Shown piece after piece: positions 1 to 23,736 of a stretch of DNA of 31,211 bases (the first letter of the stretch is position 1; each line of letters opens with the position of its first letter). The stretch comes from a virus (Duplodnaviria; Caudoviricetes). The notes beneath the pieces are model-generated. The model had not been told where the DNA came from. It saw nothing but the letters and a program-made list of their open reading frames with translations, and searched no databases. The translations under genes and the position numbers were made by a program. The DNA is taken from IMG/VR virus record IMGVR_UViG_3300037755_000457, positions 1 to 31,211 of that record, one strand, 5' to 3'.

Positions 1-990
1 GTCCCCGTGGCCGGCCACGTAGCCGCTGTGGTCCACCGCCGGGTCGGTGTTCGGCGCGAAGTGCGAGCCGGTCGAGCACGTCGGGCAGGTCACGTCGTCG
101 CCGGTGACGACGATCGGCGAGGTGCCGCCGAGGTTCGTGTCGGCGCTGACGTCGACGCCGGAGAGCGTCGCGCCGGTATGAGCGTGGCCGTCGTCATCGA
201 CAGTCGGATCCGGGTACGTGCCTCCGAGGTCACCGCCGGCGGCTCCGGTCGGGGCCCGGGCGTCCGTCATCGTCGGGCCGATCTCCTGGAGCGCGGCCTC
301 GACATCGGCGCCGGTGAAGAACGTCCCGGCGTCGGTGATCGGGACCTCGGCCGCGGTCTGATCGTCCGATCCGCCGCCGCTCGGCGTGGGCACGCAGCTC
401 GGCACGCCGCTCGCTCCGTACTCGACCATCTCGCCCGGTCCGTCGCAGGCGGCCAATTCGGCTAGGCCTACCACGTCGTCCGACAGCGAGCCGTCGGCTT
501 CGAGGGCCAGTCCGGCGCCGAAGTCGCCCGACTCCGGCACGTCGTCGTCGGCCTTCGCCTCCTCGACGGTCAGGCGGTCGGCAAGGACGTTCAGGGCCAC
601 CCCAACCTCATCTGGATCAGGGTTGATCCAGTCGGTGTCGACGGCAGGGGTATACGGAACATCGTTCGCCATCAGCGGCCAGGTGTGGTGCGCGTCGGCG
701 ACGTTGTGCGCGTCGATCGCGGCCGACACCTCGATGTCGGTTGCCAGCTCGGCCGGGAGGTCGGCTGCGGTGATGGCGCGGAAGGTGGCCGCGCCGCCGG
801 CGAGGGGGGCCATGAAGGCGTGCGTCGCGGTCGTGGCCTGGAAGCACGCTCCCGTCGAGCAGTCGCCTACAGAGGTGATATCCCCCGAGCCGCCGGCGCC
901 GGTCGGGAACAGGGTCAGCACGCCCGTCGTCTGCCCCAGCGCCGGAGACGCAGCCATCAGGGCGCAGAGCAGCAGTGCAGCACGGCGCAT
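1..990 (-). CDS. Tail-fibre-like protein with N-terminal signal peptide (3' end runs off the window; not in the ORF track)
   Basis: My translation from ATG 990 (overlaps the TGA of the upstream gene) is open for 330 codons to base 1: MRRAALLLCALMAASPALGQTTG... It contains fibre-type motifs AAEVPITDAGTFFTGADVEAALQEI and AGGDLGGTYPDPTV, plus Cys pairs. Confidence 0.8.
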   Translation of the reverse strand, partial: MRRAALLLCALMAASPALGQTTGVLTLFPTGAGGSGDITSVGDCSTGACFQATTATHAFMAPLAGGAATFRAITAADLPAELATDIEVSAAIDAHNVADAHHTWPLMANDVPYTPAVDTDWINPDPDEVGVALNVLADRLTVEEAKADDDVPESGDFGAGLALEADGSLSDDVVGLAELAACDGPGEMVEYGASGVPSCVPTPSGGGSDDQTAAEVPITDAGTFFTGADVEAALQEIGPTMTDARAPTGAAGGDLGGTYPDPTVDDDGHAHTGATLSGVDVSADTNLGGTSPIVVTGDDVTCPTCSTGSHFAPNTDPAVDHSGYVAGHGD

Positions 991-1670
991 CACGGGTACA
1001 CCTGCACTTTCAGCGACCCCGGAGCCGGCGGCACCGTCATCACTCCACCGCCGCTGAAGGTCACCGTGAACCGTCCGTAGTAGGCGCCAGACAGCGCCGA
1101 GGTCTCGACCGAGGACCACGAGTGGCGGAAGGTAGCCGTCCAGGTCCCATCCACCTGCGCGTCGGCGTCCACTACCGAGGCCGCCGCGGCGTCGATGACC
1201 AGCGTCCCCTGGGTGCTCCAGAGATTGAACGCCACGTCCGCCCCGGTCGGGTCGGCGCCCAGCCCAGAGACGCTGACATCGGCCGCCGGGAGCGTGTCAC
1301 CGGCCGCTATCGTGATCGTGGCCGGCACCCGGTAGGAGACGGTCGCGGAGGTCACCTGCGGCGTCCTGGTCTGGATCGGGTAGGCGTATCTCCCCGGAGA
1401 TCCTGAAGCCTCCCAGGTCACCTCGTGCCACTCGCCGCTCCCGGCCACCGGGTCCGGCAGGCCGTCGAACAGGTAGTCGCGCCCGTTGGCCTGCTCCGTC
1501 ACCGTCACCGCGGAGTCATCACCGACGACGCAGCCGGAGGCGGTGCAGTCGTAGAGCACGAGGGCGAGGTCACCCTTCACCAGTCCGGGAGTGCCGAGCG
1601 GGGCGATGAAGCTCTCGGCCGCGACCGGCAGGGCCGTCAGCAGCAGGGCAGCAGCGAGGGATCTCTTCAT
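990..1670 (-). CDS. Signal-peptide protein with C-terminal BppU-N-like (baseplate upper protein) Ig domain
   Basis: N-terminus MKRSLAAALLLTALPVAA|ES. C-half IAAGDTLP...DPTGADVAFNL...GAYYGRFTVTFSGGGVMTVP...LKVQV fits the BppU N-terminal pattern. ATGA overlap with the upstream gene. Confidence 0.7.
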   Translation of the reverse strand: MKRSLAAALLLTALPVAAESFIAPLGTPGLVKGDLALVLYDCTASGCVVGDDSAVTVTEQANGRDYLFDGLPDPVAGSGEWHEVTWEASGSPGRYAYPIQTRTPQVTSATVSYRVPATITIAAGDTLPAADVSVSGLGADPTGADVAFNLWSTQGTLVIDAAAASVVDADAQVDGTWTATFRHSWSSVETSALSGAYYGRFTVTFSGGGVMTVPPAPGSLKVQVYP

Positions 1671-2641
1671 GCGGCAGCCTCCATGAGGAACAAGATATCA
1701 GGGGGAGCGCCGACCGTCGGATGATTCTCCACCACCACCCTTGAGTCCGGCGCGCCTGACGTGTCGGTCGCTGCGGCCACGATCGCCACCCGCGGCTCCG
1801 CTTCGTCCTCGGCGTCGATGCCGTAGAGCAGCGCCTTCCCGTCCTCGGTGCGTGAGTCGACGTTGGCCGGCAATCCGCTCGCCACGACCCATGACGCAGT
1901 GGTAGGCCAGCGCGGCTCCTCGCTCGGATACACCGCATCCTCGAGCGCCAGCATCTCGCCACCGCTAGGGAGCAGCGATTTGCCATCTCCGTCCGAGACC
2001 CCCGCGATGAAAAGCGCTGACCCGGGCGAGCCTGCCCCCTCTCCGCTTGTGGTCCCAGACGAACCAGACAGCGGCATACGGGATCCTCGCCCACCCGAAG
2101 ACTCTGCCGTGAACGTCGCAGCGATGAGCAGCGCTACCGAGTTGATCGCTGCCGTCAGCGAATCCCACGTTGCGTCCTCGGAGGTCTCCAGCTCCACAGT
2201 CGAAACCGTCTCCGCTCCCGTCAGGTCGCAGTCCGCTCGGCGCAGGTAGAGGATGGTGGTGGTGACGGTCGGCGCGGCCGGGATCTCCGACCAGTAGAGT
2301 TTGCCGGCGTGGTAGTAGGCGGACGAAACCAGAGCGCCCACAGTAGCGGTGTAGCTGTAGAGCACATCCCCGACGACATCCCAGCAGTAGATGGTGTCTG
2401 CGCCGTCGCTCCAGACCAGAGAACCGACCCCCACTTGCGCCGCGCTGTCCTCGTGGATGATGATGGCGTCGGCAGGAAACTCGCCCGCCCACGCCACACC
2501 GCCGCGATCCTCTATCCAGCCCCCGGCGTCCGAGTAGATCGACGACAGCAGCGATCCGCCATCCTCGTGGAAACCGTAGAAGGTCGGCGTCACCGTCACC
2601 GCAGGCACCGCTCGGATCAGGTCGCGCCCTACAGGGGCCAC
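1667..2641 (-). CDS. Virion tail-tip protein, beta-rich, possibly a beta-propeller
   Basis: 324 aa acidic ORF in the tail-tip cluster; GGAGGT RBS before the GTG; GKLYWSE...LRRADCDLTG resembles a YWTD-type propeller blade. Confidence 0.6.
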   Translation of the reverse strand: MAPVGRDLIRAVPAVTVTPTFYGFHEDGGSLLSSIYSDAGGWIEDRGGVAWAGEFPADAIIIHEDSAAQVGVGSLVWSDGADTIYCWDVVGDVLYSYTATVGALVSSAYYHAGKLYWSEIPAAPTVTTTILYLRRADCDLTGAETVSTVELETSEDATWDSLTAAINSVALLIAATFTAESSGGRGSRMPLSGSSGTTSGEGAGSPGSALFIAGVSDGDGKSLLPSGGEMLALEDAVYPSEEPRWPTTASWVVASGLPANVDSRTEDGKALLYGIDAEDEAEPRVAIVAAATDTSGAPDSRVVVENHPTVGAPPDILFLMEAAA

Positions 2642-4134
2642 AGCAGCACCTCCAGCACGGCATCCTCCGACGCAGTCCCGGACGGGATCTCGGCCACGGA
2701 GGCGCGGATCGCAGCGCCGGCGGCAATCTCGTAGGCGAGCGGGATCGCGTCGAGGTGGCGAGGATCGGCAGCAGCGACGGCGATGCGCGGCGGCGAGTCG
2801 GTATCACCGCCAGCGAGGTCGGAGGCCCACGTCAGGTCGAAGTCGGAATCAACCTCCAACCCGAAGCGCGTCTCGCCCGTGACGCCCGAATCGGCGACGA
2901 AGGCGCGGAGACCGCGCACCGGCAGCACGAACGCCGGTCGGTCGAAGGGGTTGACGGCGTAGCGATAGACCCCGGCCACCTGCGTCCCCGGCCACTCGAA
3001 GCGCAGCATCGCCCGGCTGCCACCGGCCCACTTCCGGCGATCGCGGTGCTCGGTGACTCCCGACCCGTCGGTGACCGCCTCGTGCAGCAGCAACGCCCGC
3101 GTCCCGACCGGAGGCTCGCCGTCGATGGTGACCGCCAATAGGCCGTTGCGCCGCAGCCAGATCGAATTCGTCTCCGAAGCCGTCAGCGCCACCTGCTGGG
3201 ACACCCCGGAGAGGGTCAGGGAGTTGTCCACCAGCGCGTTGCCGGGACCGATCGTGGCGGTGAGCAGGGTAGCGGTGAAGCCGTACAACCCGGCGCTCCA
3301 GAGATTCGTGATGTCGGCGTTGCCGATCACGCCCGAGTCGTCCACCGCGACGTAGGCGATCGCCACCTCGCCGGTCGGCGTGGCCGGCACGTCGTCAGGG
3401 CCCAGCGGGTCGGTGGTCTCGACCCCAGCCGTCACCGTCAACGTCCCGTCGGCGGCCAGTGACAGGAGGTCGTACCTGGCATTCGACGCCGCCGCGGCGG
3501 TCAACGGGATAAGCTGCTGGTGATACGCCCACGGCTTGCGCCCGGCGATCCACACCAGGGGACCGATCTGCACCTCATTGTCGGCCCCTCCGGGGTTCTC
3601 CGCCACGTTGGAGCCAGTTACCAGGACGGCGGCGTTCGGGTCTCCGATCGGCATGATGACGCCGTCGATGCCCGACTCGGTCAGGCCGGGCGAGGTCACC
3701 ACGGACAGATCCGACACCACCGACAGCACCAGCACCCGCTGGAGGGCCTGCGCATCGGCAGGAGCTGAGACCTGGAACTCCAGCGTCAGCCCCTCCCCGG
3801 CGGCGAGGGCGGGAAGCGGCAGGTAAGACCCGGCTCCCAGCGGTGTCCACTGCGTCGGTTGCGCCGTCTTGCCGCCGAGTCCGGAGACGACGCGGGCCTC
3901 GACGTAGTGCCGATCGACCAACTCGTCCCCACTCTCGACCGCCGAGGTGGCGCCGGAGGGGAGTGCCAAGCCATGCAGGCGCCCGTTGCTCAGAGCATCC
4001 GCCGGGGTGCCGTCCTTGGAGTTGTAGAGGCGCAGCTCAAGCGCCGTCCCCGCCGCCCCGGCATCCCCCTCGATCGGCGGCGCCGAGGTAAGCAGGGTAT
4101 CGGTGTCGTCGTACCACTCGATGTCGGCGACCAT
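2629..4134 (-). CDS. Virion structural/baseplate protein with two tandem related domains
   Basis: 501 aa. Segments VQIGP...ARYDLLSL...PATPTGEVAIAYVAV...DITNL and ATIGPG...PPVGTRALLLHEAVTD...HRDRR look like two copies of a common phage tail-fibre-anchor domain. Confidence 0.65.
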   Translation of the reverse strand: MVADIEWYDDTDTLLTSAPPIEGDAGAAGTALELRLYNSKDGTPADALSNGRLHGLALPSGATSAVESGDELVDRHYVEARVVSGLGGKTAQPTQWTPLGAGSYLPLPALAAGEGLTLEFQVSAPADAQALQRVLVLSVVSDLSVVTSPGLTESGIDGVIMPIGDPNAAVLVTGSNVAENPGGADNEVQIGPLVWIAGRKPWAYHQQLIPLTAAAASNARYDLLSLAADGTLTVTAGVETTDPLGPDDVPATPTGEVAIAYVAVDDSGVIGNADITNLWSAGLYGFTATLLTATIGPGNALVDNSLTLSGVSQQVALTASETNSIWLRRNGLLAVTIDGEPPVGTRALLLHEAVTDGSGVTEHRDRRKWAGGSRAMLRFEWPGTQVAGVYRYAVNPFDRPAFVLPVRGLRAFVADSGVTGETRFGLEVDSDFDLTWASDLAGGDTDSPPRIAVAAADPRHLDAIPLAYEIAAGAAIRASVAEIPSGTASEDAVLEVLLWPL

Positions 4135-8157: not shown

Positions 8158-8460
8158 CTATCCTCCGGCGCCCTTTCGCCCGGTCGGTCTAGCTGGTCCA
8201 ATGTGGCCAGGCGGTTTGAAGAACCGGCTGGTGTTGCGCTCCCCGAACAGGACGCCGCTCCCCTGGAGCACCTTCACCAACTCAGCGGCCCGGCGCGCCG
8301 CCTCCTCCTCGCTGATCTGCGGCCCCTTCTTCTTCTTCGGGTCCTCCAGCCGCTCCTTCTCGCGGTGCGCCAACCGGCACGCCGACAGCGTCTCGGCCAT
8401 CGCCGCCGTGGCCGCGATCCAGCCGTCCCGCACGTCGTACCACGCCGCAGCCGTGCTCAC
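8158..8460 (-). CDS. Hypothetical protein (possible displaced tail assembly chaperone)
   Basis: GTG 8460 overlaps the tape-measure TGA, with GAGGA upstream; 100 aa, helical and charged. Confidence 0.55.
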   Translation of the reverse strand: MSTAAAWYDVRDGWIAATAAMAETLSACRLAHREKERLEDPKKKKGPQISEEEAARRAAELVKVLQGSGVLFGERNTSRFFKPPGHIGPARPTGRKGAGG

Positions 8461-10811
8461 GCCGCCAGATCCTCGGTGCAAGCCTTCGCCTCCTTGCAGA
8501 GCGTGACGTAGCGCTCGACCTCGGCATTGACCGACTGGAGGGCCGCGACCCGCTTCAGGGCCTCGGATTCGATGGCCTCGGTCAGCTCCTTCTCACGCTC
8601 TAGCTGCTCCTTCTGCGCCTCGTTGAGGTTCGAGGTCGCCTCGACCGCCTGCTCCTGCTGCTCGTTCCACTCGCCGAGGGCCTGACCGGCGATGTCGAGC
8701 CGGGACTTCATCGCGTCCAGGGTGTCGGCGTTGGCCGCCTGCTCGGCGGTCAGGTCGGCCAGCGCCAGCTCCGTGGTGCCGACCTCGGTCCCCAGCGTCT
8801 TCGCCGCCGCCGCCGCGTCCTTGGTGCCGAGGCCGAGCTGCTCCGTGATGTCGAGGTAATCCTGGGCCGAGGTCTCGGCCTGCGCCAGGCCGTGAGCCAA
8901 CTCGCCGGCCCCGACCACCTCCTCTCGCATCGCCTCCCGCAGGTCGCGGGTGCTGTCGAGGAGCTCCTGCCGCGACTCGATCGTGTCCTCGGTCTGGGAG
9001 TGCAGCACCTCGTAGACCGGGGCTGCTTCCGCGATCGCCGCCGTCAGATCACGCTCGACGACGGCAAGCTCATCGGTCGCCGCGAACAGATCCCCAAGCT
9101 GCTCTGCGGTCCGGCTCGGCAGGCCCTCCAGCCCTGCGATCGTGCGGCGCAGCTTCTCGGCCCGCTCGGCCAGCGACTTGGCATCCTCGGCCGCCTGCTC
9201 GGCCCCCTCTCCGAAGACCTGGACATCCTGACGCCTGGCGGCAGCGGCGGTCGCTTCGTCCGTCGCGGCGGCAACCTCCTTAAGGGAGGCGGTGAGGAGA
9301 TCGTTCTTCGCTGCCGCGTCGGTGACGGCATCCGCCTCGGCGCCCAGAGCCTCGCCGCGTTCCGCCGCTCCCGCTGTCGCCTCGGCCCGGGCCGCGTACT
9401 CCTCGCGGATGCGGGCGATCAGCTCGATCCCGGCCTGCGAGGCCGCGTACTGCTCCTGCGCCGTCTCGCGGTAGCCCTCGGCCAGGAACTTCAGGTCCGT
9501 CAGGGCACCCTCGCGGAGCGCGGCAATCGCCTCCCGATCGGCCCTCGCCGCTTCGGCGATCCTGCTCCCCACCACCGGGATCTTGTCGGCCAGGGATTCG
9601 ATCAGGCCGCCGATCGTGTCAGCAAACGCCAGACTGCCGTCCGCCACCTTGGCGAGGCCGCCGAGGATGATCCCCCAGGTGTCGGCCAGGACGCCGCGCA
9701 GCGTCGTGTAGGCGACGCCGACATAGCTGGCGCCACGGACCAGCGTGGCGAGCGTCTGACCGAGGCCGGCTGCGGCACCCGTGGCGGTTTCGCTGTCGGT
9801 GGCGAAGCCGGTCAGGGTGTCGGACGCGATCTCGAGCTCCCGCGCCAGCCCCGCCTGACCCACCCTCTCTGCGAGGTCGCCCACCGCGTTCTTGAGAGCG
9901 GCCAGGGCTCCCGGCAACGTTTCTCGTGCGGCCCTGGCGACACCGCCGAACTCTCCCGCCAGCTCTTCCAGGATGACGCGCTGCGCACCGGCCACGTCGC
10001 CGGTATCGACCAGTGCTTTGATGACCTCCTTCTGGTCCTCGGTGAAGGACACACCAGCCCGGGACAGCGCGCTGATCCCCAGAACCGGGTCGTTCAGCGC
10101 CTTGCCGAGTTGGAGCGCCGCGCCCTTGGCGTCCCCGCCCATCGCCTCGGCGAGATCCAGCGTCCTCTCCAGCACCTCCGGCAGGATGTCCCCGCCGATC
10201 TGCTTGAAGGTCAGCAGCAGCGACAGCAGGCCGAGGTTCGTCTCGTCACCGGAAGTGGTGACCGCCTGCATGTCGGAAGCGATCTTCTGGAGCTCGGCGG
10301 AGGTCAGGCCGGCGGCGTGTTGCGTCGCGGCCAGTGTGGCGTTGAGCTTGGCGACGGCGGCGTCCTGTACGCCCGTGGCTTCGATGATCGCCCTGAACGC
10401 CCGGCCGGCGCCGATCGCGGCCAGCGCAACACCGATGCCGAGGATCGCGCCCTTGAGGCCACCGAGCGAGGAGGCGCCCGACTTGCCGAACGACTCGATG
10501 CGCGCATCCGCCGAGCGTAGCTCGCCCTCCAGGCGGTTCACCTCGGCCCGGAGCTGGCTTACATCGGTGTCTGCGGCGTCAGCCTTCGTGGCCAGTTTGC
10601 CGAAGGCGACGGCGCCCTTCTGGCCGGTCTCGACCAGCTCGCGGGCCAAACCCTCGGCATCGCGCTCGAGGTCGTCGATCTCGGCCCGGTCCGTCGCCGC
10701 GTTGATCTTGGTGATGGTCTGCTGCCAGCGCTGGCCGACCTCGTTGAACCGGCCGAGAGTGTCGCCAATCTCGGCCAGAATCTCGATGATCGCCTGCTCG
10801 CGGACAGCCAC
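8457..10811 (-). CDS. Tail tape measure protein
   Basis: 784 aa Ala-rich helical protein with the conserved TMP block LLTFKQIGG...LGKALNDPVLGISALSRAGVSFTEDQKEVIKALVDTGDVAGAQRVILEEL; GGGGAG RBS. Confidence 0.95.
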   Translation of the reverse strand: MAVREQAIIEILAEIGDTLGRFNEVGQRWQQTITKINAATDRAEIDDLERDAEGLARELVETGQKGAVAFGKLATKADAADTDVSQLRAEVNRLEGELRSADARIESFGKSGASSLGGLKGAILGIGVALAAIGAGRAFRAIIEATGVQDAAVAKLNATLAATQHAAGLTSAELQKIASDMQAVTTSGDETNLGLLSLLLTFKQIGGDILPEVLERTLDLAEAMGGDAKGAALQLGKALNDPVLGISALSRAGVSFTEDQKEVIKALVDTGDVAGAQRVILEELAGEFGGVARAARETLPGALAALKNAVGDLAERVGQAGLARELEIASDTLTGFATDSETATGAAAGLGQTLATLVRGASYVGVAYTTLRGVLADTWGIILGGLAKVADGSLAFADTIGGLIESLADKIPVVGSRIAEAARADREAIAALREGALTDLKFLAEGYRETAQEQYAASQAGIELIARIREEYAARAEATAGAAERGEALGAEADAVTDAAAKNDLLTASLKEVAAATDEATAAAARRQDVQVFGEGAEQAAEDAKSLAERAEKLRRTIAGLEGLPSRTAEQLGDLFAATDELAVVERDLTAAIAEAAPVYEVLHSQTEDTIESRQELLDSTRDLREAMREEVVGAGELAHGLAQAETSAQDYLDITEQLGLGTKDAAAAAKTLGTEVGTTELALADLTAEQAANADTLDAMKSRLDIAGQALGEWNEQQEQAVEATSNLNEAQKEQLEREKELTEAIESEALKRVAALQSVNAEVERYVTLCKEAKACTEDLAA

Positions 10812-12256: not shown

Positions 12257-12604
12257 CTACCCCTCCCCGCCCGGCTCAGTCCGGGCTTCGTCCTGCTCGG
12301 CGAGATGCCGCCGGGCGAGTTCGAGGTTTGCCCGCACCGCAGGCGATGGATCGGTGCCGCCCTCGTGATAGGCGACGTACTCGGCAGGCGTCATCTTGAA
12401 CGGCCAGGGCTTTAGTGCGGGCACCGTCACCGGCTCCACGCCCCACCCGGCCTGGGCGATCGACGCGGCTTGCAGCTCCGACAGCATCACCTCCCGAGAG
12501 ATCTGCGAGGCCGAGAAGCGCAGCCGCGGGCCGTGGTGAACGTGGAGCACCACCTCGCCCATGCTGGGTTCGGCCGGTCTCGTGATGCGATACAGGCTAT
12601 CCAT
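12257..12604 (-). CDS. Hypothetical protein (neck/tail region)
   Basis: 115 aa; GAGGAG RBS; fills the gap between terminator-like and tube genes. Confidence 0.65.
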   Translation of the reverse strand: MDSLYRITRPAEPSMGEVVLHVHHGPRLRFSASQISREVMLSELQAASIAQAGWGVEPVTVPALKPWPFKMTPAEYVAYHEGGTDPSPAVRANLELARRHLAEQDEARTEPGGEG

Positions 12605-12613
12605 GTCGGCTCC

Positions 12614-13207
12614 TCACGCGGCATCCGCCGCGACGACGTTCTTGAGCAAACCGCTCAGGTGGTCCACCGCAACCTCGTAGGTGACTCTGCACTCCCGCAT
12701 CACCACCACCGTCCCCGTCCCCGGCATCTGCGGGTGCTCGACGACACCTGCCGTAGCGAACGGCCCCACGATCGGACCCTTCTGGGCGAGCTGAACATCC
12801 ACGCCGTTGACCACCTCGGCCAAGTGGCGGGCGTTCTTGATCGCGGTCAGGATCCAGGTCTCCACCGTCGCCAGGCTCGGCTGCGCCCACGGCCACGGGT
12901 CGGTAGGCAGTCCCTTGCGTAGCGGCTTCCACTCCGGCCAGTCGACCAGGATGCGCAGCACCAGCGACACCTTGCGGATATCGACTCGCCCGGGCGCACC
13001 TACCTCCTCCGGGGCCAGGTCGTGCGCCACCTGTAGTCGGGGCATGTTGCGGTAGTCCGGCGCCAGGATCGGGACGGCTTCGATCCGCTCGGCACCGAAG
13101 ACGATCTGCAACCGCTCGTCGGCGGCGAGAACGCGCTGGATCTTGCAGACCAGGACGTCCTCGGGCGCCGCCTCGGCGGGGCCGAAATGCTCGGTCAGGG
13201 ACTTCAC
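12614..13207 (-). CDS. Putative tail terminator/completion protein
   Basis: GTG 13207 overlaps the upstream TGA; KIQRVLAADERLQIVFGAERI...MPRLQV pattern and synteny. The upstream extension shown in the ORF track overlaps the neighbouring gene. Confidence 0.65.
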   Translation of the reverse strand: MKSLTEHFGPAEAAPEDVLVCKIQRVLAADERLQIVFGAERIEAVPILAPDYRNMPRLQVAHDLAPEEVGAPGRVDIRKVSLVLRILVDWPEWKPLRKGLPTDPWPWAQPSLATVETWILTAIKNARHLAEVVNGVDVQLAQKGPIVGPFATAGVVEHPQMPGTGTVVVMRECRVTYEVAVDHLSGLLKNVVAADAA

Positions 13208-13773
13208 TGGACCAGCCCCCGCACGACCACTTCGGCCGCCCGTCGTAGCATCTCCGGCGATACGCCCACGCGACGGGGCGGGATCACCAGCCCAGCCAGC
13301 AGTTTGCGGGCGCTGATCCAGGCGCCGAACGTCAGGCCGAGAGTCACCTGCATAGACAGCCTGCCGGTCTTCCCGCGACGCCGGGCTCGCACCGTGGTCG
13401 ACCGCTCCCGCTGGTGGACGGCGCCGTAGCCCTGGATGCCGATCTGGACGCGATCGGGCTTGATCGCCTCGAAGCTTCCCGCCGCTCGGCCCGCCCACTG
13501 CGCGTCGAGGTTGCCGGTTCGATGGAGGCTCCGCGCCGGCGCCGGCCGGTTGCCGAACGCCTTGCTCCGTGGCCACGGCTGCACGCCCCCGCTGGCGGAC
13601 AGGTACAACTGCCGCCGGCGCTGGTCAGCGACGGAGCCCGGGCCGAAGCGCATCACCTCCACCACCCGCTTCCCAACGGGGTCCACCAGCGGACGCTTCA
13701 GCCTGTTCTCGATGCGGTCGAACGCCTTGCCGCTTCGGGGTCCGCCTCGGAAGCTGGTGCGCAAGACGGCCAT
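13204..13773 (-). CDS. Phage virion morphogenesis (Mu gpG / P2 gpS-like neck) protein
   Basis: Basic protein with W...LHRTGNL...VQIG..GYGAVHQ...IPPRRVGVS motifs; ATG 13773 lies 2 nt after the connector stop. Confidence 0.75.
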   Translation of the reverse strand: MAVLRTSFRGGPRSGKAFDRIENRLKRPLVDPVGKRVVEVMRFGPGSVADQRRRQLYLSASGGVQPWPRSKAFGNRPAPARSLHRTGNLDAQWAGRAAGSFEAIKPDRVQIGIQGYGAVHQRERSTTVRARRRGKTGRLSMQVTLGLTFGAWISARKLLAGLVIPPRRVGVSPEMLRRAAEVVVRGLVQ

Positions 13774-17457: not shown

Positions 17458-17657
17458 TGAGCGAGGAGGGTGCGATGAGCGACACGACGTGGCATGAAGT
17501 GGTGGTGGACGGCCTGACGTACCGCTTCCGCGACAAGGCGACGGGGGAGCGGTTCCGGCTGGCGGTCGAGGAGCAGTCGGTCGGGACCGAGAACGCGAGG
17601 GTCGCCGACGACGGAACCCTGCTCGGCGCCCGCCTGATCGGCCGGCGAGTCCTCTAG
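17454..17657 (+). CDS. Hypothetical protein
   Basis: Coupled to the HTH gene; GAGGAGG RBS suggests the start is MSDTT (ATG 17475); the stop overlaps the portal stop. Confidence 0.6.
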   Translation: MMSEEGAMSDTTWHEVVVDGLTYRFRDKATGERFRLAVEEQSVGTENARVADDGTLLGARLIGRRVL

Positions 17658-20092
17658 CCCACCACCTCGACCACGCCCTCCCCGCACCGGCAGCTCCCCG
17701 GATGCGGCTCCGGCGGGCCGAAGTACGAAGACCCGCTGATCGGCGAGACGTAGAGATCGTCTCCCCTCGCCACCTGCTCATCCAGACTGATGCACTCCGG
17801 GCACACCCGGCCGTCGTCGGAGTCCACCCAGATGCGGTGGATGTCCTGCACCTGACGGGTCTGGCGCGCCTGATCCCACGCCTGGCGCTGCGCACCAAAG
17901 GCCGCTCGAGACCCCTGGTCGGCGCCTACCATCGTCGCTCGCTCGGTGATCTGCTTGACGATCATCCGCTCGACCTTGTGGATCGCGTCCGCGATGGACT
18001 GCCCGGCGGCGAGGAGGTCGGCCAGGAACTTCCGGGCCCGCGCCGCCTGCGGGCCGTTGATCGCCACCAGCCAGGAGAACAGGCCAGCGGCAGCCGCCAG
18101 GTCCGCCGGCGAGAGGGTGGAGCGTAGGTCCGCCACAGCGTCCAGTACGGCACGCTCGGAGCTCTCGGCGATGAAGCCCGCGGCCGCCACCGCCGTCCCC
18201 CGCGACCAAGCGTCGAGCAGCCCCTGATCCACCTCGATGTCGCGGCCCACCGCCGAGGCCAGACGTTCGGCGCCTACCGCTGCCCCCTGCTGGCTGGCGG
18301 CCACGACCGGAGCCACCAGAGCGTCGAGCTCGGCGATCAGGGCCTGAATCCCGGCAGCCCTGGCCACGTCTCCGGGCGTACCGGACTCCAGGGCGGAACG
18401 CACCCGCTCCTCTCTGACCGAAGACCGGGCCGATGCGGCGGCGGTGCGGAAGACCGTGGCGATCCGCGAGGCGGTCCGGTCCGCCAGGGCGAACAGCGGG
18501 GCCAGCTCGGCCAGGATCGACGCCTTGCGCTCGCTGGCGGGTGGAGCAGCCTTGCCGATGATCGCCGCGGGCGGCAGGCGCTTGGCGGGCGTCACGTCGG
18601 TCGGGCGGTCGAAGCTGGACGCCGCACCAACCATTCGGAGCACCGTGTCTCGGTCCACGGTAGGGAACGACACCGAGATCAACTCGATAGCCGTCTCCGG
18701 GGGGAGGATGCGGTCGGCAACCGCTTGCACGATGGCCTGGAGAGACTGGACCTGAGCGCCGTTCAGAGCCGTCTGCGCAACCTCTTCCGTCGCAAGGGTA
18801 GCGCCCTCCGGCAACTCGGGGGGGGATGATCCAGACTCGATCGCCAGACGGCCCAGGCTGACGCCGTGCGGCATGTCCCCCGCCCCGTCGATAGGGGCGA
18901 GGTCGATGTCCAGCAGCCGGATCGCCTCGTTGTACGGAGTCCCGGCCCTGAGCAGCCGCTCCATCGTCTCGACCTTCGCGCCGACCTTGTCCTGTAGCGC
19001 CTCGACCGCCGATGCGTCGGGGACGATCCAGAGCCTACCCTCCTCGCCGAAGCGCGGCACCACCTGTCGGTTTAGGGTGCCACAGAAGAGGTCGAGCCAG
19101 GGCATGACGTTCGACTCCCACAGCCAGCGGATCGCGTGCTCGAGGTTCGAGTACGTGGCCGCCTCCGGGCTGAGAAGCGCGGGCAGCAAGTTGAACCCCG
19201 CCGCCACCTTGTCGACCGTGAATTTCGACGTGGCGAGGAAGTCCATCTCGACGGGGCTGCGGCTGAGATCCTGGTAGGTCCATGACCCAGGGATCAGGGC
19301 CACGCCGTGAGCGTTCTCGGCGCCCTGCATCTGCTCATCCACGAGCTGGCGTGCCTGAGCGTATTGGATGTCGGTCGGGTAGACGCCGTCCTTCCCAATC
19401 AGCATGCCGTCCTTGACGGCGCGCCGCTTCATCGCCTCCCGATTCCACAGCGTCGCCTCGATGTCGGCCTCGACCACCCCGGCCAGACTCTCGAGCGGCC
19501 CCACGCCCCAGTCGAACCGGCCGGGGTCCTGGAACATCCAGTGCGCGACACCCTCCGCCGGCAGCTCGCGGTCCACGGTCTGTAGCCCCGAGTGCCGATA
19601 CCGGATCGGCCAGCCCGTCTCGTCCGGCACCGCTCGATAGCCCAGCGCCAGCGGCCAGAGCGCCACCGGCCTACCACGGAGGCCCTGCTGCGCCGTCACG
19701 ATCTTGGCCAAGCAGTTGCCGGTGAGCGACATCCGAGACGAAGCGAGGCGGATGAACCCCGAGCGGTCCATCTTCGGGTTCGGCCGGTCGAGGAGATCCT
19801 GGAGCTGGCGCACCGCGGACCCCTCAGGATGCTCGGAGGCCGGCTCCCACTCCTCGCCGACAAGCACCTGCGCCACCAGGGGCACCCGGGCCGCGGCGGT
19901 AGCGATCAGGCGAACCGCAGTCGACACCCAGACGTTGCCGCGGTAGCCGCGCCTGACCGCCTCCGCTTCGTCCCACGTCGCCTCCGAGGATCGCCCGGCA
20001 GACACGGAGCGCACGATCAGCGGCGGTTCCGTCGAGGACTTCGCACCCACGGGCCGCGCCGTCGCCCGGGCCAACGCTGTGATGGGATTCAC
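17654..20092 (-). CDS. Portal protein fused to a MuF/SPP1 gp7-like minor head domain
   Basis: N-terminal ~410 aa is an HK97-type portal (LLDRPNP, LTGNC, GVGPLESL, SPVEMDFL, ATYSNLE). C-terminus WVDSDDGRVCPEC...PPEPHPGSCRC is the MuF signature. Confidence 0.92.
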   Translation of the reverse strand: MNPITALARATARPVGAKSSTEPPLIVRSVSAGRSSEATWDEAEAVRRGYRGNVWVSTAVRLIATAAARVPLVAQVLVGEEWEPASEHPEGSAVRQLQDLLDRPNPKMDRSGFIRLASSRMSLTGNCLAKIVTAQQGLRGRPVALWPLALGYRAVPDETGWPIRYRHSGLQTVDRELPAEGVAHWMFQDPGRFDWGVGPLESLAGVVEADIEATLWNREAMKRRAVKDGMLIGKDGVYPTDIQYAQARQLVDEQMQGAENAHGVALIPGSWTYQDLSRSPVEMDFLATSKFTVDKVAAGFNLLPALLSPEAATYSNLEHAIRWLWESNVMPWLDLFCGTLNRQVVPRFGEEGRLWIVPDASAVEALQDKVGAKVETMERLLRAGTPYNEAIRLLDIDLAPIDGAGDMPHGVSLGRLAIESGSSPPELPEGATLATEEVAQTALNGAQVQSLQAIVQAVADRILPPETAIELISVSFPTVDRDTVLRMVGAASSFDRPTDVTPAKRLPPAAIIGKAAPPASERKASILAELAPLFALADRTASRIATVFRTAAASARSSVREERVRSALESGTPGDVARAAGIQALIAELDALVAPVVAASQQGAAVGAERLASAVGRDIEVDQGLLDAWSRGTAVAAAGFIAESSERAVLDAVADLRSTLSPADLAAAAGLFSWLVAINGPQAARARKFLADLLAAGQSIADAIHKVERMIVKQITERATMVGADQGSRAAFGAQRQAWDQARQTRQVQDIHRIWVDSDDGRVCPECISLDEQVARGDDLYVSPISGSSYFGPPEPHPGSCRCGEGVVEVVG

Positions 20093-20301
20093 CGCGTACC
20101 TCCCTCCGCGACCCTGCGCGGACCCTGCTCAGGTGATGCCTGCACCTCGCGAACCTGCGCCCACACCGCGACCGCGCCGTAGACCAGCAGCAGCAGGCCG
20201 GCGCTGATCGGCCACGTCGGCCAGCCGACCCAGGAGGCGATGCCCCAGGTCACGAGCCCCCACCCGGCGACGACAGACAGCACCGGCAAGTGACGCGTCA
20301 T
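20089..20301 (-). CDS. Small two-TM membrane protein between terL and portal
   Basis: MTRHLPVLSVVAGWGLVTWGIASWVGWPTWPISAGLLLLVYGAVAVW; start/stop overlaps on both sides. Confidence 0.75.
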   Translation of the reverse strand: MTRHLPVLSVVAGWGLVTWGIASWVGWPTWPISAGLLLLVYGAVAVWAQVREVQASPEQGPRRVAEGGTR

Positions 20302-23002: not shown

Positions 23003-23320
23003 GTGCTCGACCTGACACCAACGTTCATTCAGGAGGTGGTAGGGGACATCGTTGGGGTCGGATTCGAGCCCGGACGTGATGAAGTTCGCCTACGGGCCGA
23101 TCCGACGTCGTTCAATTGCGTCGCGACCAGCGACCAGGTAGATAAGGCGCTGGAGCTGAGAGGTACACCAGTGCGAGCCCTGCTGATTCAGGCGGACAAC
23201 AAGACCCGACTCCTCCGGCTCGGGCGGCCGGATGACCCGCCATTCGTGCCGAGCGAGGAGGATGTTGAGCAACACCTCTTCAAGCGTTGGCACGAACTGC
23301 TTACGAGGCTCGCCAAGTGA
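23003..23320 (+). CDS. Putative antitoxin of the Doc/Fic gene
   Basis: GTGA-coupled upstream of doc; C-terminal helix LFKRWHELLTRLAK resembles Doc-neutralising tails; extended -10 TGG-TAGACT lies 7 nt before the GTG. Confidence 0.6.
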   Translation: MLDLTPTFIQEVVGDIVGVGFEPGRDEVRLRADPTSFNCVATSDQVDKALELRGTPVRALLIQADNKTRLLRLGRPDDPPFVPSEEDVEQHLFKRWHELLTRLAK

Positions 23321-23736
23321 ACGGGGTGCCTTGGTCGGAGCTTATGACCAGAGATCAGGTCATCCGGCTCCACGATGAGGGCATCAAGCGATACGGTGGA
23401 GATCCGACCCCACGCGGCGACTTGGAGTCCTGCATCGACCGCAGCCTTGGGGCTGCGTGGAACGGCGCCTTGTATCGAGAGCCGGTCGACGCAGCCGCAG
23501 GGCTGTGCTTTGCTGCGTTCCTTCTCTTCTATCTTACTAAGAACCAGTGTTTCACAGATGGCAACAAGAGGACCGGGTGGCTTGCTGGGGTCTGGGTCCT
23601 GTTGGCGCTTGGCCTGACCGTCACGGCCTCCAAAGAGGAGTGCGAGATCATGGTCCGGTCGATAGCCGCCGAGGCCGCCGCCACGGCTGATGATGTTGTA
23701 CGGTGGCTGGCGCCCCGAGTCGAGAGCGTCACCTAG
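23317..23736 (+). CDS. doc: Doc/Fic family toxin with degenerate catalytic motif
   Basis: VIRLHDEGIKRYGG N-terminus; KNQCFTDGNKRTG versus consensus HPFxDGNKR. Confidence 0.88.
   Translation: MNGVPWSELMTRDQVIRLHDEGIKRYGGDPTPRGDLESCIDRSLGAAWNGALYREPVDAAAGLCFAAFLLFYLTKNQCFTDGNKRTGWLAGVWVLLALGLTVTASKEECEIMVRSIAAEAAATADDVVRWLAPRVESVT

Follow-up and report, generated by a model that had tools for sequence, protein, structure and literature searches.

The two most distal genes of the tail operon of an uncultured sediment phage encode proteins, designated P0001 and P0002, that begin with predicted Sec leaders. With such leaders, the products likely leave the cytoplasm and are trimmed and disulfide-bonded after export. 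The account that we modestly favor is that a putative adaptor (P0001) and a putative fiber (P0002) are exported, oxidized, and docked onto the tail around the time of lysis. A sequence-only reading of this DNA had proposed export and oxidative folding of both proteins, followed by incorporation into the virion or by a free role as receptor decoys or adhesins, and that interpretation is partly supported by the results below. Conservation of the leaders, at a fixed place in the operon, is supported, and leader-bearing proteins of the cultured phage phi10:1 that are annotated from mass spectrometry provide an apparent precedent.

Gene order of the window

The window, which is the whole stretch of DNA analyzed and also the whole record (31,211 bases; ≈70% GC), is a fragment of an HK97-type phage that is probably long-tailed. 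Its minus strand encodes, in order, a small terminase, a large terminase (TerL), a portal-MuF fusion, an HK97-type protease, the major capsid protein, a head-tail connector, a 451-aa protein, and the tape measure protein, followed by proteins of 231, 777, 189, 501, and 324 aa and then by P0001 and P0002. The 451-aa protein, which has no family match, is the probable tail tube judged by its position, and the 231-, 777-, 189-, 501-, and 324-aa proteins gave no significant family match in Pfam and PHROG searches. The location of the tape measure gene (Table 1) places the upstream genes in the tail operon. No sheath gene was detected in the window, and the tail is therefore probably non-contractile. 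Lysis genes are also absent from these 31,211 bases.

Near-identical DNA is present in 2 of the 12 listed sediment runs, which contain at least half of the words and one of which may be the source, and the remaining 10 have word shares of ≤0.20; no RNA run was listed as containing the window sequence. The best matches of TerL are Synechococcus phages at <50% identity, and host assignment failed. When genomes of one phylum were sampled, each profile matched 2 of 401 genomes, in single domains only.

Several other features of the window were observed. The portal carries a C-terminal MuF domain (17654-20092, minus strand), and the major capsid protein (14789 to about 16312, minus strand) has an apparent β-rich insert at about residues 190-265, before the HK97 core, as judged from a weak phrog_9998 match. 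On the plus strand, a Doc/Fic-type toxin gene (23003-23736) overlaps an upstream gene for a 105-aa protein, and the two are probably a toxin-antitoxin pair.

Leaders and gene starts of P0001 and P0002

The two distal reading frames and the N-termini described in the sequence-only reading were found as given, on the minus strand (Table 1). Leaders were called by a rule of our own, rather than by SignalP, that combines a basic n-region, a hydrophobic 9-mer, and small residues at positions -3 and -1. By this rule the signal-peptide-like N-termini hold up: P0001 and P0002 are the only 2 of the 22 window genes that pass, and the head and tail genes are leaderless. The rule passed 38 of 5557 internal control segments (0.7%) and 7 of 1055 N-termini taken from start codons in the window, 3 of which belong to P0001 or P0002. 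Two small hydrophobic ORFs, one between the terminase and portal genes (20089-20301, minus strand) and one in the early region (from 29291, plus strand), also pass.

Translational coupling to the other tail genes was borne out by an ATGA overlap (1667-1670) that joins the gene for the 324-aa protein to P0001 and by a TGATG overlap (988-992) that couples P0001 to P0002. A Shine-Dalgarno-like sequence precedes the P0001 ATG, which is the sole start codon between an in-frame stop 9 codons upstream and codon 31. For P0002, alternative starts are GTG codons at -43, -1, and codon 24 and an ATG at codon 12. GC3 is 0.88 for both genes, compared to 0.85-0.91 for the structural core, and their in-frame codon scores and GC content likewise match the core. 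This core-like composition argues against recent insertion. The suggestion that the pair might be lysogenic morons is not borne out by gene spacing or composition: there is no intergenic space before P0001 or P0002, and GC and GC3 are those of the core.

Table 1. Coordinates of the tail-operon features considered in this study
Feature	Position	Strand	Basis
P0002, first 330 aa (gene truncated at its 3' end by the contig boundary); predicted exported mosaic fiber-like protein	1..990	-	
GGDL repeat module of P0002 (residues 241-266)	193..270	-	
DDQ-x-A-x-EV...MTDAR repeat module of P0002 (residues 209-248), query for related loci	247..366	-	
Predicted Sec/SPase I leader of P0002, residues 1-19, cleavage between ALG and Q	934..990	-	rule pass
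P0001, 226 aa; leader followed by Ig-like and BppU_N-like domains, predicted to be an exported adaptor	990..1670	-	
P0001 domain 2 (residues about 108-226), BppU_N-like β-sandwich	993..1349	-	
P0001 domain 1 (residues 19-97), Ig-like β-sandwich bearing C42/C47	1380..1616	-	
Predicted Sec/SPase I leader of P0001, residues 1-18, cleavage between VAA and E	1617..1670	-	rule pass
Shine-Dalgarno-like GGAGG, 7 nt before the P0001 ATG	1678..1682	-	sequence
324-aa leaderless protein directly upstream of P0001; no family match	1667..2641	-	
501-aa leaderless, cysteine-free, all-β multidomain tail protein	2629..4134	-	
Tape measure protein	8457..10811	-	phrog_27166, E 3e-38

P0001 is a leader-bearing two-domain protein related to BppU_N

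Six homologues of P0001 were found (41-67% identity), and five carry a leader, three by the rule at the called start and two by alignment; a further member of the cluster (P0031) also passes the rule. In the alignment, positions -3 and -1 keep small residues ahead of an invariant Glu. Two homologues (P0006 and P0008) have the same hydrophobic stretch and ALPVAA before E, after a conserved 57-aa extension that could be an extended signal peptide or the result of a miscalled start. The expectation that homologues keep the peptide fails for P0007, which has no leader and starts where the mature parts of the others align; its start could be miscalled.

The closely spaced cysteines that had been remarked on (CTASGC; C42/C47) are present, and their conservation is uneven: three of the six homologues, the closer ones, keep this pair, two (P0006 and P0008) have a different pair, and one has none. 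Cysteines track the leader, as the mature part of every leader-bearing homologue has a pair and the leaderless P0007 has none, a natural control that consists of this one case.

AlphaFold2 modeled P0001 as two β-sandwich domains (mean pLDDT 73.9) with no coiled coil, and residues 19-30, which are conserved, form the first strand. Foldseek and VIA searches with this model returned general Ig folds only, mostly for domain 1. The Atlas model matches BppU_N clusters, with TM scores of 0.78 by row and 0.41 by query in the structure row, and Atlas feature scores for P0001 (0.86-0.88) were below the bar of that tool. A relationship to BppU_N emerged from sequence comparisons. In the tail module of a prophage (locus L148), the P0001 family profile finds a stand-alone protein of 109 aa (E 1.1e-10), which domain 2 of P0001 matches at 36% over 102 aa (blastp E 1e-12). 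The 109-aa protein is leaderless and matches Pfam BppU_N (PF10651) at 36.1 bits, with a cut-off of 23.1, and one of its relatives in cultured viruses is annotated as a BppU N-terminal domain. Neither P0001 nor 7 relatives matched PF10651. By sequence comparison, then, domain 2 of P0001 is homologous to BppU_N through the leaderless L148 protein; since P0001 itself has no Pfam score, BppU_N is a works-like link through one intermediate. The BppU-like body that had been proposed is thus upheld for about residues 108-226 and not for the rest of P0001. At L148 (10128-11589), a gene for a leader-bearing, four-cysteine protein of 264 aa is found two genes downstream of the stand-alone BppU_N gene.

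The best viral match of P0001 is a 144-aa protein (36% identity). Searches with P0001 or its alignment found no loci in the viral, metagenome, or genome collections, and tblastn with P0001 and its second domain found no match in cultured phages. Gene order around true orthologues is hinted at only by the longest contig of P0004 and that of P0034, which are both 5665 bases. Small leaderless proteins at loci L004-L006 were considered as P0001 relatives, an idea that found no support (hhalign probability 0.3%; no Pfam or PHROG match).

P0002 is a mosaic, fiber-like protein

Over its residues 1-118, which include the leader, P0002 shares 58% identity with P0009. Among longer proteins, 22 matches were obtained, and each has from one to a few short modules in common with P0002 (residues 1-118, 108-187, 167-207, 203-248, 241-266, and 309-330). 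Mosaicism of short modules is typical of fibers. The GGDL module is common to P0002, leaderless fiber-like proteins, and a Bdellovibrio S74 fiber. There are weak matches to a Streptomyces phage minor tail protein (E 6e-3) and to a Bdellovibrio protein with a tail-fiber domain. P0002 is distal in the tail operon and its modules recur in fiber-position genes, which agrees with the fiber-like character that had been ascribed to it, although searches of Pfam, PHROG, and PDB gave it no match. Three alignments used as queries against PDB sequences returned nothing meaningful.

P0002 has six cysteines past the leader (C44/C49, C182/C199, and C302/C305) and one, C9, within it. The leader rule was passed by 9 of the 22 matches, 7 were classed as leaderless, and 6 were ambiguous by eye. 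Cysteine content is 0.9-2.3% in the 9 leader-bearing matches versus 0.2-1.2% in the 7 leaderless ones (p = 0.003), a comparison that sets aside the 6 ambiguous matches, 5 of which have 0-0.2% cysteine, so that the contrast is not robust and is weakened if these are counted as leader-bearing. Prediction of a complex between P0001 (residues 19-226) and P0002 (residues 20-80) gave scores of 0.32, 0.00, and 0.00, which are neutral on binding.

Leader-bearing genes at the far end of structural blocks in other loci

Loci were searched with an alignment of six proteins, all leader-bearing, that covers the P0002 repeat, and 26 viral, 63 genome, and 49 metagenome loci were recovered. The repeat-matching ORF passes the leader rule in 21 of the 26 viral loci, a count biased by the leader-only query, by acceptance of any in-frame start before the match, and by two pairs of near-duplicate loci. 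The five viral misses comprise one truncated ORF, one long leader that is visible by eye, and three leaderless proteins. Among the metagenome loci 26 of 49 pass, including L132, which has a spurious internal start; several loci duplicate one another. The 63 genome loci are nearly all titled Bacteroidota, and L064 alone was examined.

In most viral loci, the repeat gene is one of 1-4 consecutive leader genes that close the structural block, after the large structural genes. A small leaderless gene often comes before such a run and lysis-type genes after it, with neighbors read mostly by eye and 18 locus proteins checked. At L017 and L025, the small gene ahead of the leader-bearing fiber gene is also leader-bearing. 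Leader-bearing fibers at L015, L021, and L022 lack any cysteine. The locus closest in GC (L007; 68%) encodes a tape measure protein 44% identical to that of the window, followed by a hub-like protein, a Dit-like protein, a leaderless stub, and two cysteine-rich leader-bearing proteins, with a muramidase downstream. Three other viral loci match over short stretches only, yet have leader-bearing genes in their structural blocks.

Further observations were made at individual loci. In L064, on a contig binned to Gemmatimonadota, a cysteine-rich leader-bearing gene (1837-2538) that shares several P0002 modules lies right after a Dit-like gene and probably shows what follows the cut end of P0002. 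The fiber-position genes of L010 (9530-10936) and L011 (9530-11050) have a lipoprotein-like leader (LAGC) instead of the cleavable type found elsewhere. Podovirus-like contigs also have leader genes inside structural blocks, at L001 (9347-10556), L003 (8522-12176), and L002 (near 12368-13315).

Candidate docking partners in the tail

The 324-aa protein is possibly a cytoplasmic part of the tail tip. The 501-aa protein is a candidate for the cytoplasmic docking site of the adaptor: none of its 17 homologues has a leader, and AlphaFold2 modeled it confidently as an all-β multidomain chain (pLDDT 85.8). Its central part has weak tail-protein matches only, and no loci for it or its homologue P0047 were found in viral contigs. 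From a motif, we take its two central modules to be gp10-like sockets, a reading that Foldseek and sequence searches did not confirm. By likeness to the T4 gp10-like branched complexes (CBA120 TSP1-4, G7C), these two similar modules of a leaderless protein could socket extra fibers. Known members of such complexes are cytoplasmic.

Relation to known systems

According to the textbook route, tailed phages are built wholly in the cytoplasm. The nearest precedent for leader-bearing structural proteins is the cultured Cellulophaga phage phi10:1 (KC821618), in which gp091-094 are annotated as structural from MS/MS, an annotation that can include co-purifying proteins. Of 18 phi10:1 proteins tested, gp091-095 pass the leader rule and the other 13 fail; the product lines of the record do not mention leaders. 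As in the window, a run of leader genes lies at the far end of a tail operon with a tape-measure-like gene, here after the gene for the small leaderless protein gp090. The two phages differ in that phi10:1 has a Bacteroidota host, 0-2 cysteines in each leader-bearing protein, and no leader-bearing BppU_N adaptor that we could see. None of the window proteins, including P0001, P0002, and the 501-aa protein, matched the 18 phi10:1 proteins directly. They are joined through L021, which contains the P0002 repeat, matches gp091 (residues 1-71, 48%, E 1e-9), and mirrors phi10:1 in upstream gene order; the two matches fall in different parts of L021, and the leader is among the 71 matched residues.

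BppU_N is a baseplate attachment module, as in the upper baseplate protein of TP901-1, and small stand-alone BppU_N proteins occur in L148 and in Halorubrum tailed virus 25. Unlike in these systems, the domain in P0001 is C-terminal, behind a leader and a cysteine-paired Ig domain, and there is no coiled coil.

The MAT fibers of Bdellovibrio carry signal peptides and are surface-displayed (PMC10769870). Like P0002, they have a signal peptide followed by mosaic phage-fiber-like modules, and the Bdellovibrio S74 fiber shares one stretch with P0002 (about residues 241-293). MAT proteins, however, are encoded on the chromosome and serve as adhesins of the cell surface, with a conserved ~130-aa domain past the leader and an S74 or NS74 tip, whereas P0002 is encoded in a phage tail operon; P0002 has no visible S74 domain because its gene is cut.

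The tail of Agrobacterium phage Milano is disulfide-linked (PMC10811340), and the terms "signal peptide", "periplasm", and "cytoplasm" do not occur in that paper, so that these disulfides are not tied there to export. Cysteine pairs alone therefore do not prove periplasmic folding. In a preprint on HFTV1, signal peptides belong to host pili and not to virion parts, and the P22 tailspike is said to have no signal peptide (10.64898/2026.09.13.751334). Sec export of tailed-phage structural proteins was not found in the titles and abstract openings searched, a scope that leaves subscription journals mostly outside. A BppU_N adaptor and a mosaic fiber are known kinds of protein, and their export route was not found in the literature searched.

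A proposed export route and its alternatives

In the route that we favor, the late operon would be translated as one unit, and head and tail parts would remain in the cytoplasm. The adaptor and fiber would pass through Sec, have their leaders removed, form disulfides, and accumulate outside the inner membrane. The fiber would be a trimer, and the adaptor would bridge it to a leaderless tail protein, for which the 501-aa protein is the candidate. Opening of the membrane at lysis would then allow the adaptor and fiber to bind the tail tip. We infer every step of this mechanism past the leader. The likely benefit would be oxidative folding of the fibers, which would also be kept off the assembly line until release. 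Addition of fibers to finished particles is known from P22 tailspikes and T4 long fibers.

Alternatively, the two proteins could be exported and never enter the virion, serving as free decoys, as blockers of superinfection, or as adhesins on the surface of an infected cell or lysogen, with co-opted tail modules as their building blocks. This kind of role, which we consider rather unlikely, is kept alive by the occurrence of the P0002 repeat in host proteins, at 63 loci in many host genomes, and is favored by the surface-displayed Bdellovibrio MAT fibers, by the stretch that the S74 fiber shares with P0002, and by the lipoprotein-like leaders of L010 and L011, which would give a membrane anchor. 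P0001, however, has no evident anchor, and the end of P0002 is missing. Moreover, the two genes use codons as the core does and are coupled into the late tail operon, they occupy the place that receptor-binding genes take across related phages, and the leader-bearing proteins of phi10:1 are annotated as virion-associated. Decoys or adhesins thus fit the gene position and codon usage less well than does docking onto the tail.

A fiber that enters the virion alone, leaving P0001 behind as a periplasmic folding or carrier partner, would accord with the two tandem Ig-like domains and missing coiled coil of P0001 and with the usually leaderless small gene before leader-bearing fibers in other loci, which implies that a fiber may reach the tail without an exported adaptor. 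We judge this improbable, given that domain 2 falls in a baseplate attachment family (a role known from TP901-1) and that leader-bearing small genes do precede the fiber gene in L017 and L025. There is also a slim chance that the leaders are not cleaved and serve as inner-membrane tethers where tails are finished, or as timing anchors freed at lysis. The 57-aa extension before the hydrophobic stretch in two homologues resembles a signal anchor, but the small -3 and -1 residues before the invariant Glu and the leaderless homologue that starts exactly there speak for cleavage. A basic-then-hydrophobic N-terminus places the body of a protein outside the cytoplasm in any case. That both proteins are ordinary cytoplasmic tail parts, whose true starts lie downstream of the hydrophobic segments, is hard to credit. 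In-frame starts do exist at codon 31 of P0001 and codons 12 and 24 of P0002, but the start-stop overlaps and a ribosome-binding site point to initiation at the first ATG. In addition, the first strand of the P0001 model is made by the conserved residues 19-30, and homologues that have diverged in sequence still retain leader-like character.

Implications

We see an even chance that docking of exported parts onto finished tails belongs to a widespread group of tailed phages that make heads and tails in the cytoplasm and fibers in the periplasm. Here the adaptor would be exported too, and a pre-folded, disulfide-locked adaptor-fiber unit would snap onto finished tails only at lysis. What is particular to this phage is that the adaptor itself is leader-bearing and has a leaderless, cysteine-free relative. 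If the proposal is correct, the phage would rely on Sec and on oxidative folding by its host in order to recognize that host, and infectivity would be acquired only at lysis. Fibers could also be swapped with secreted adhesins of the host that bear the same repeats. Finally, pipelines that treat signal-peptide genes as non-structural would miss the receptor-binding genes of many environmental phages.
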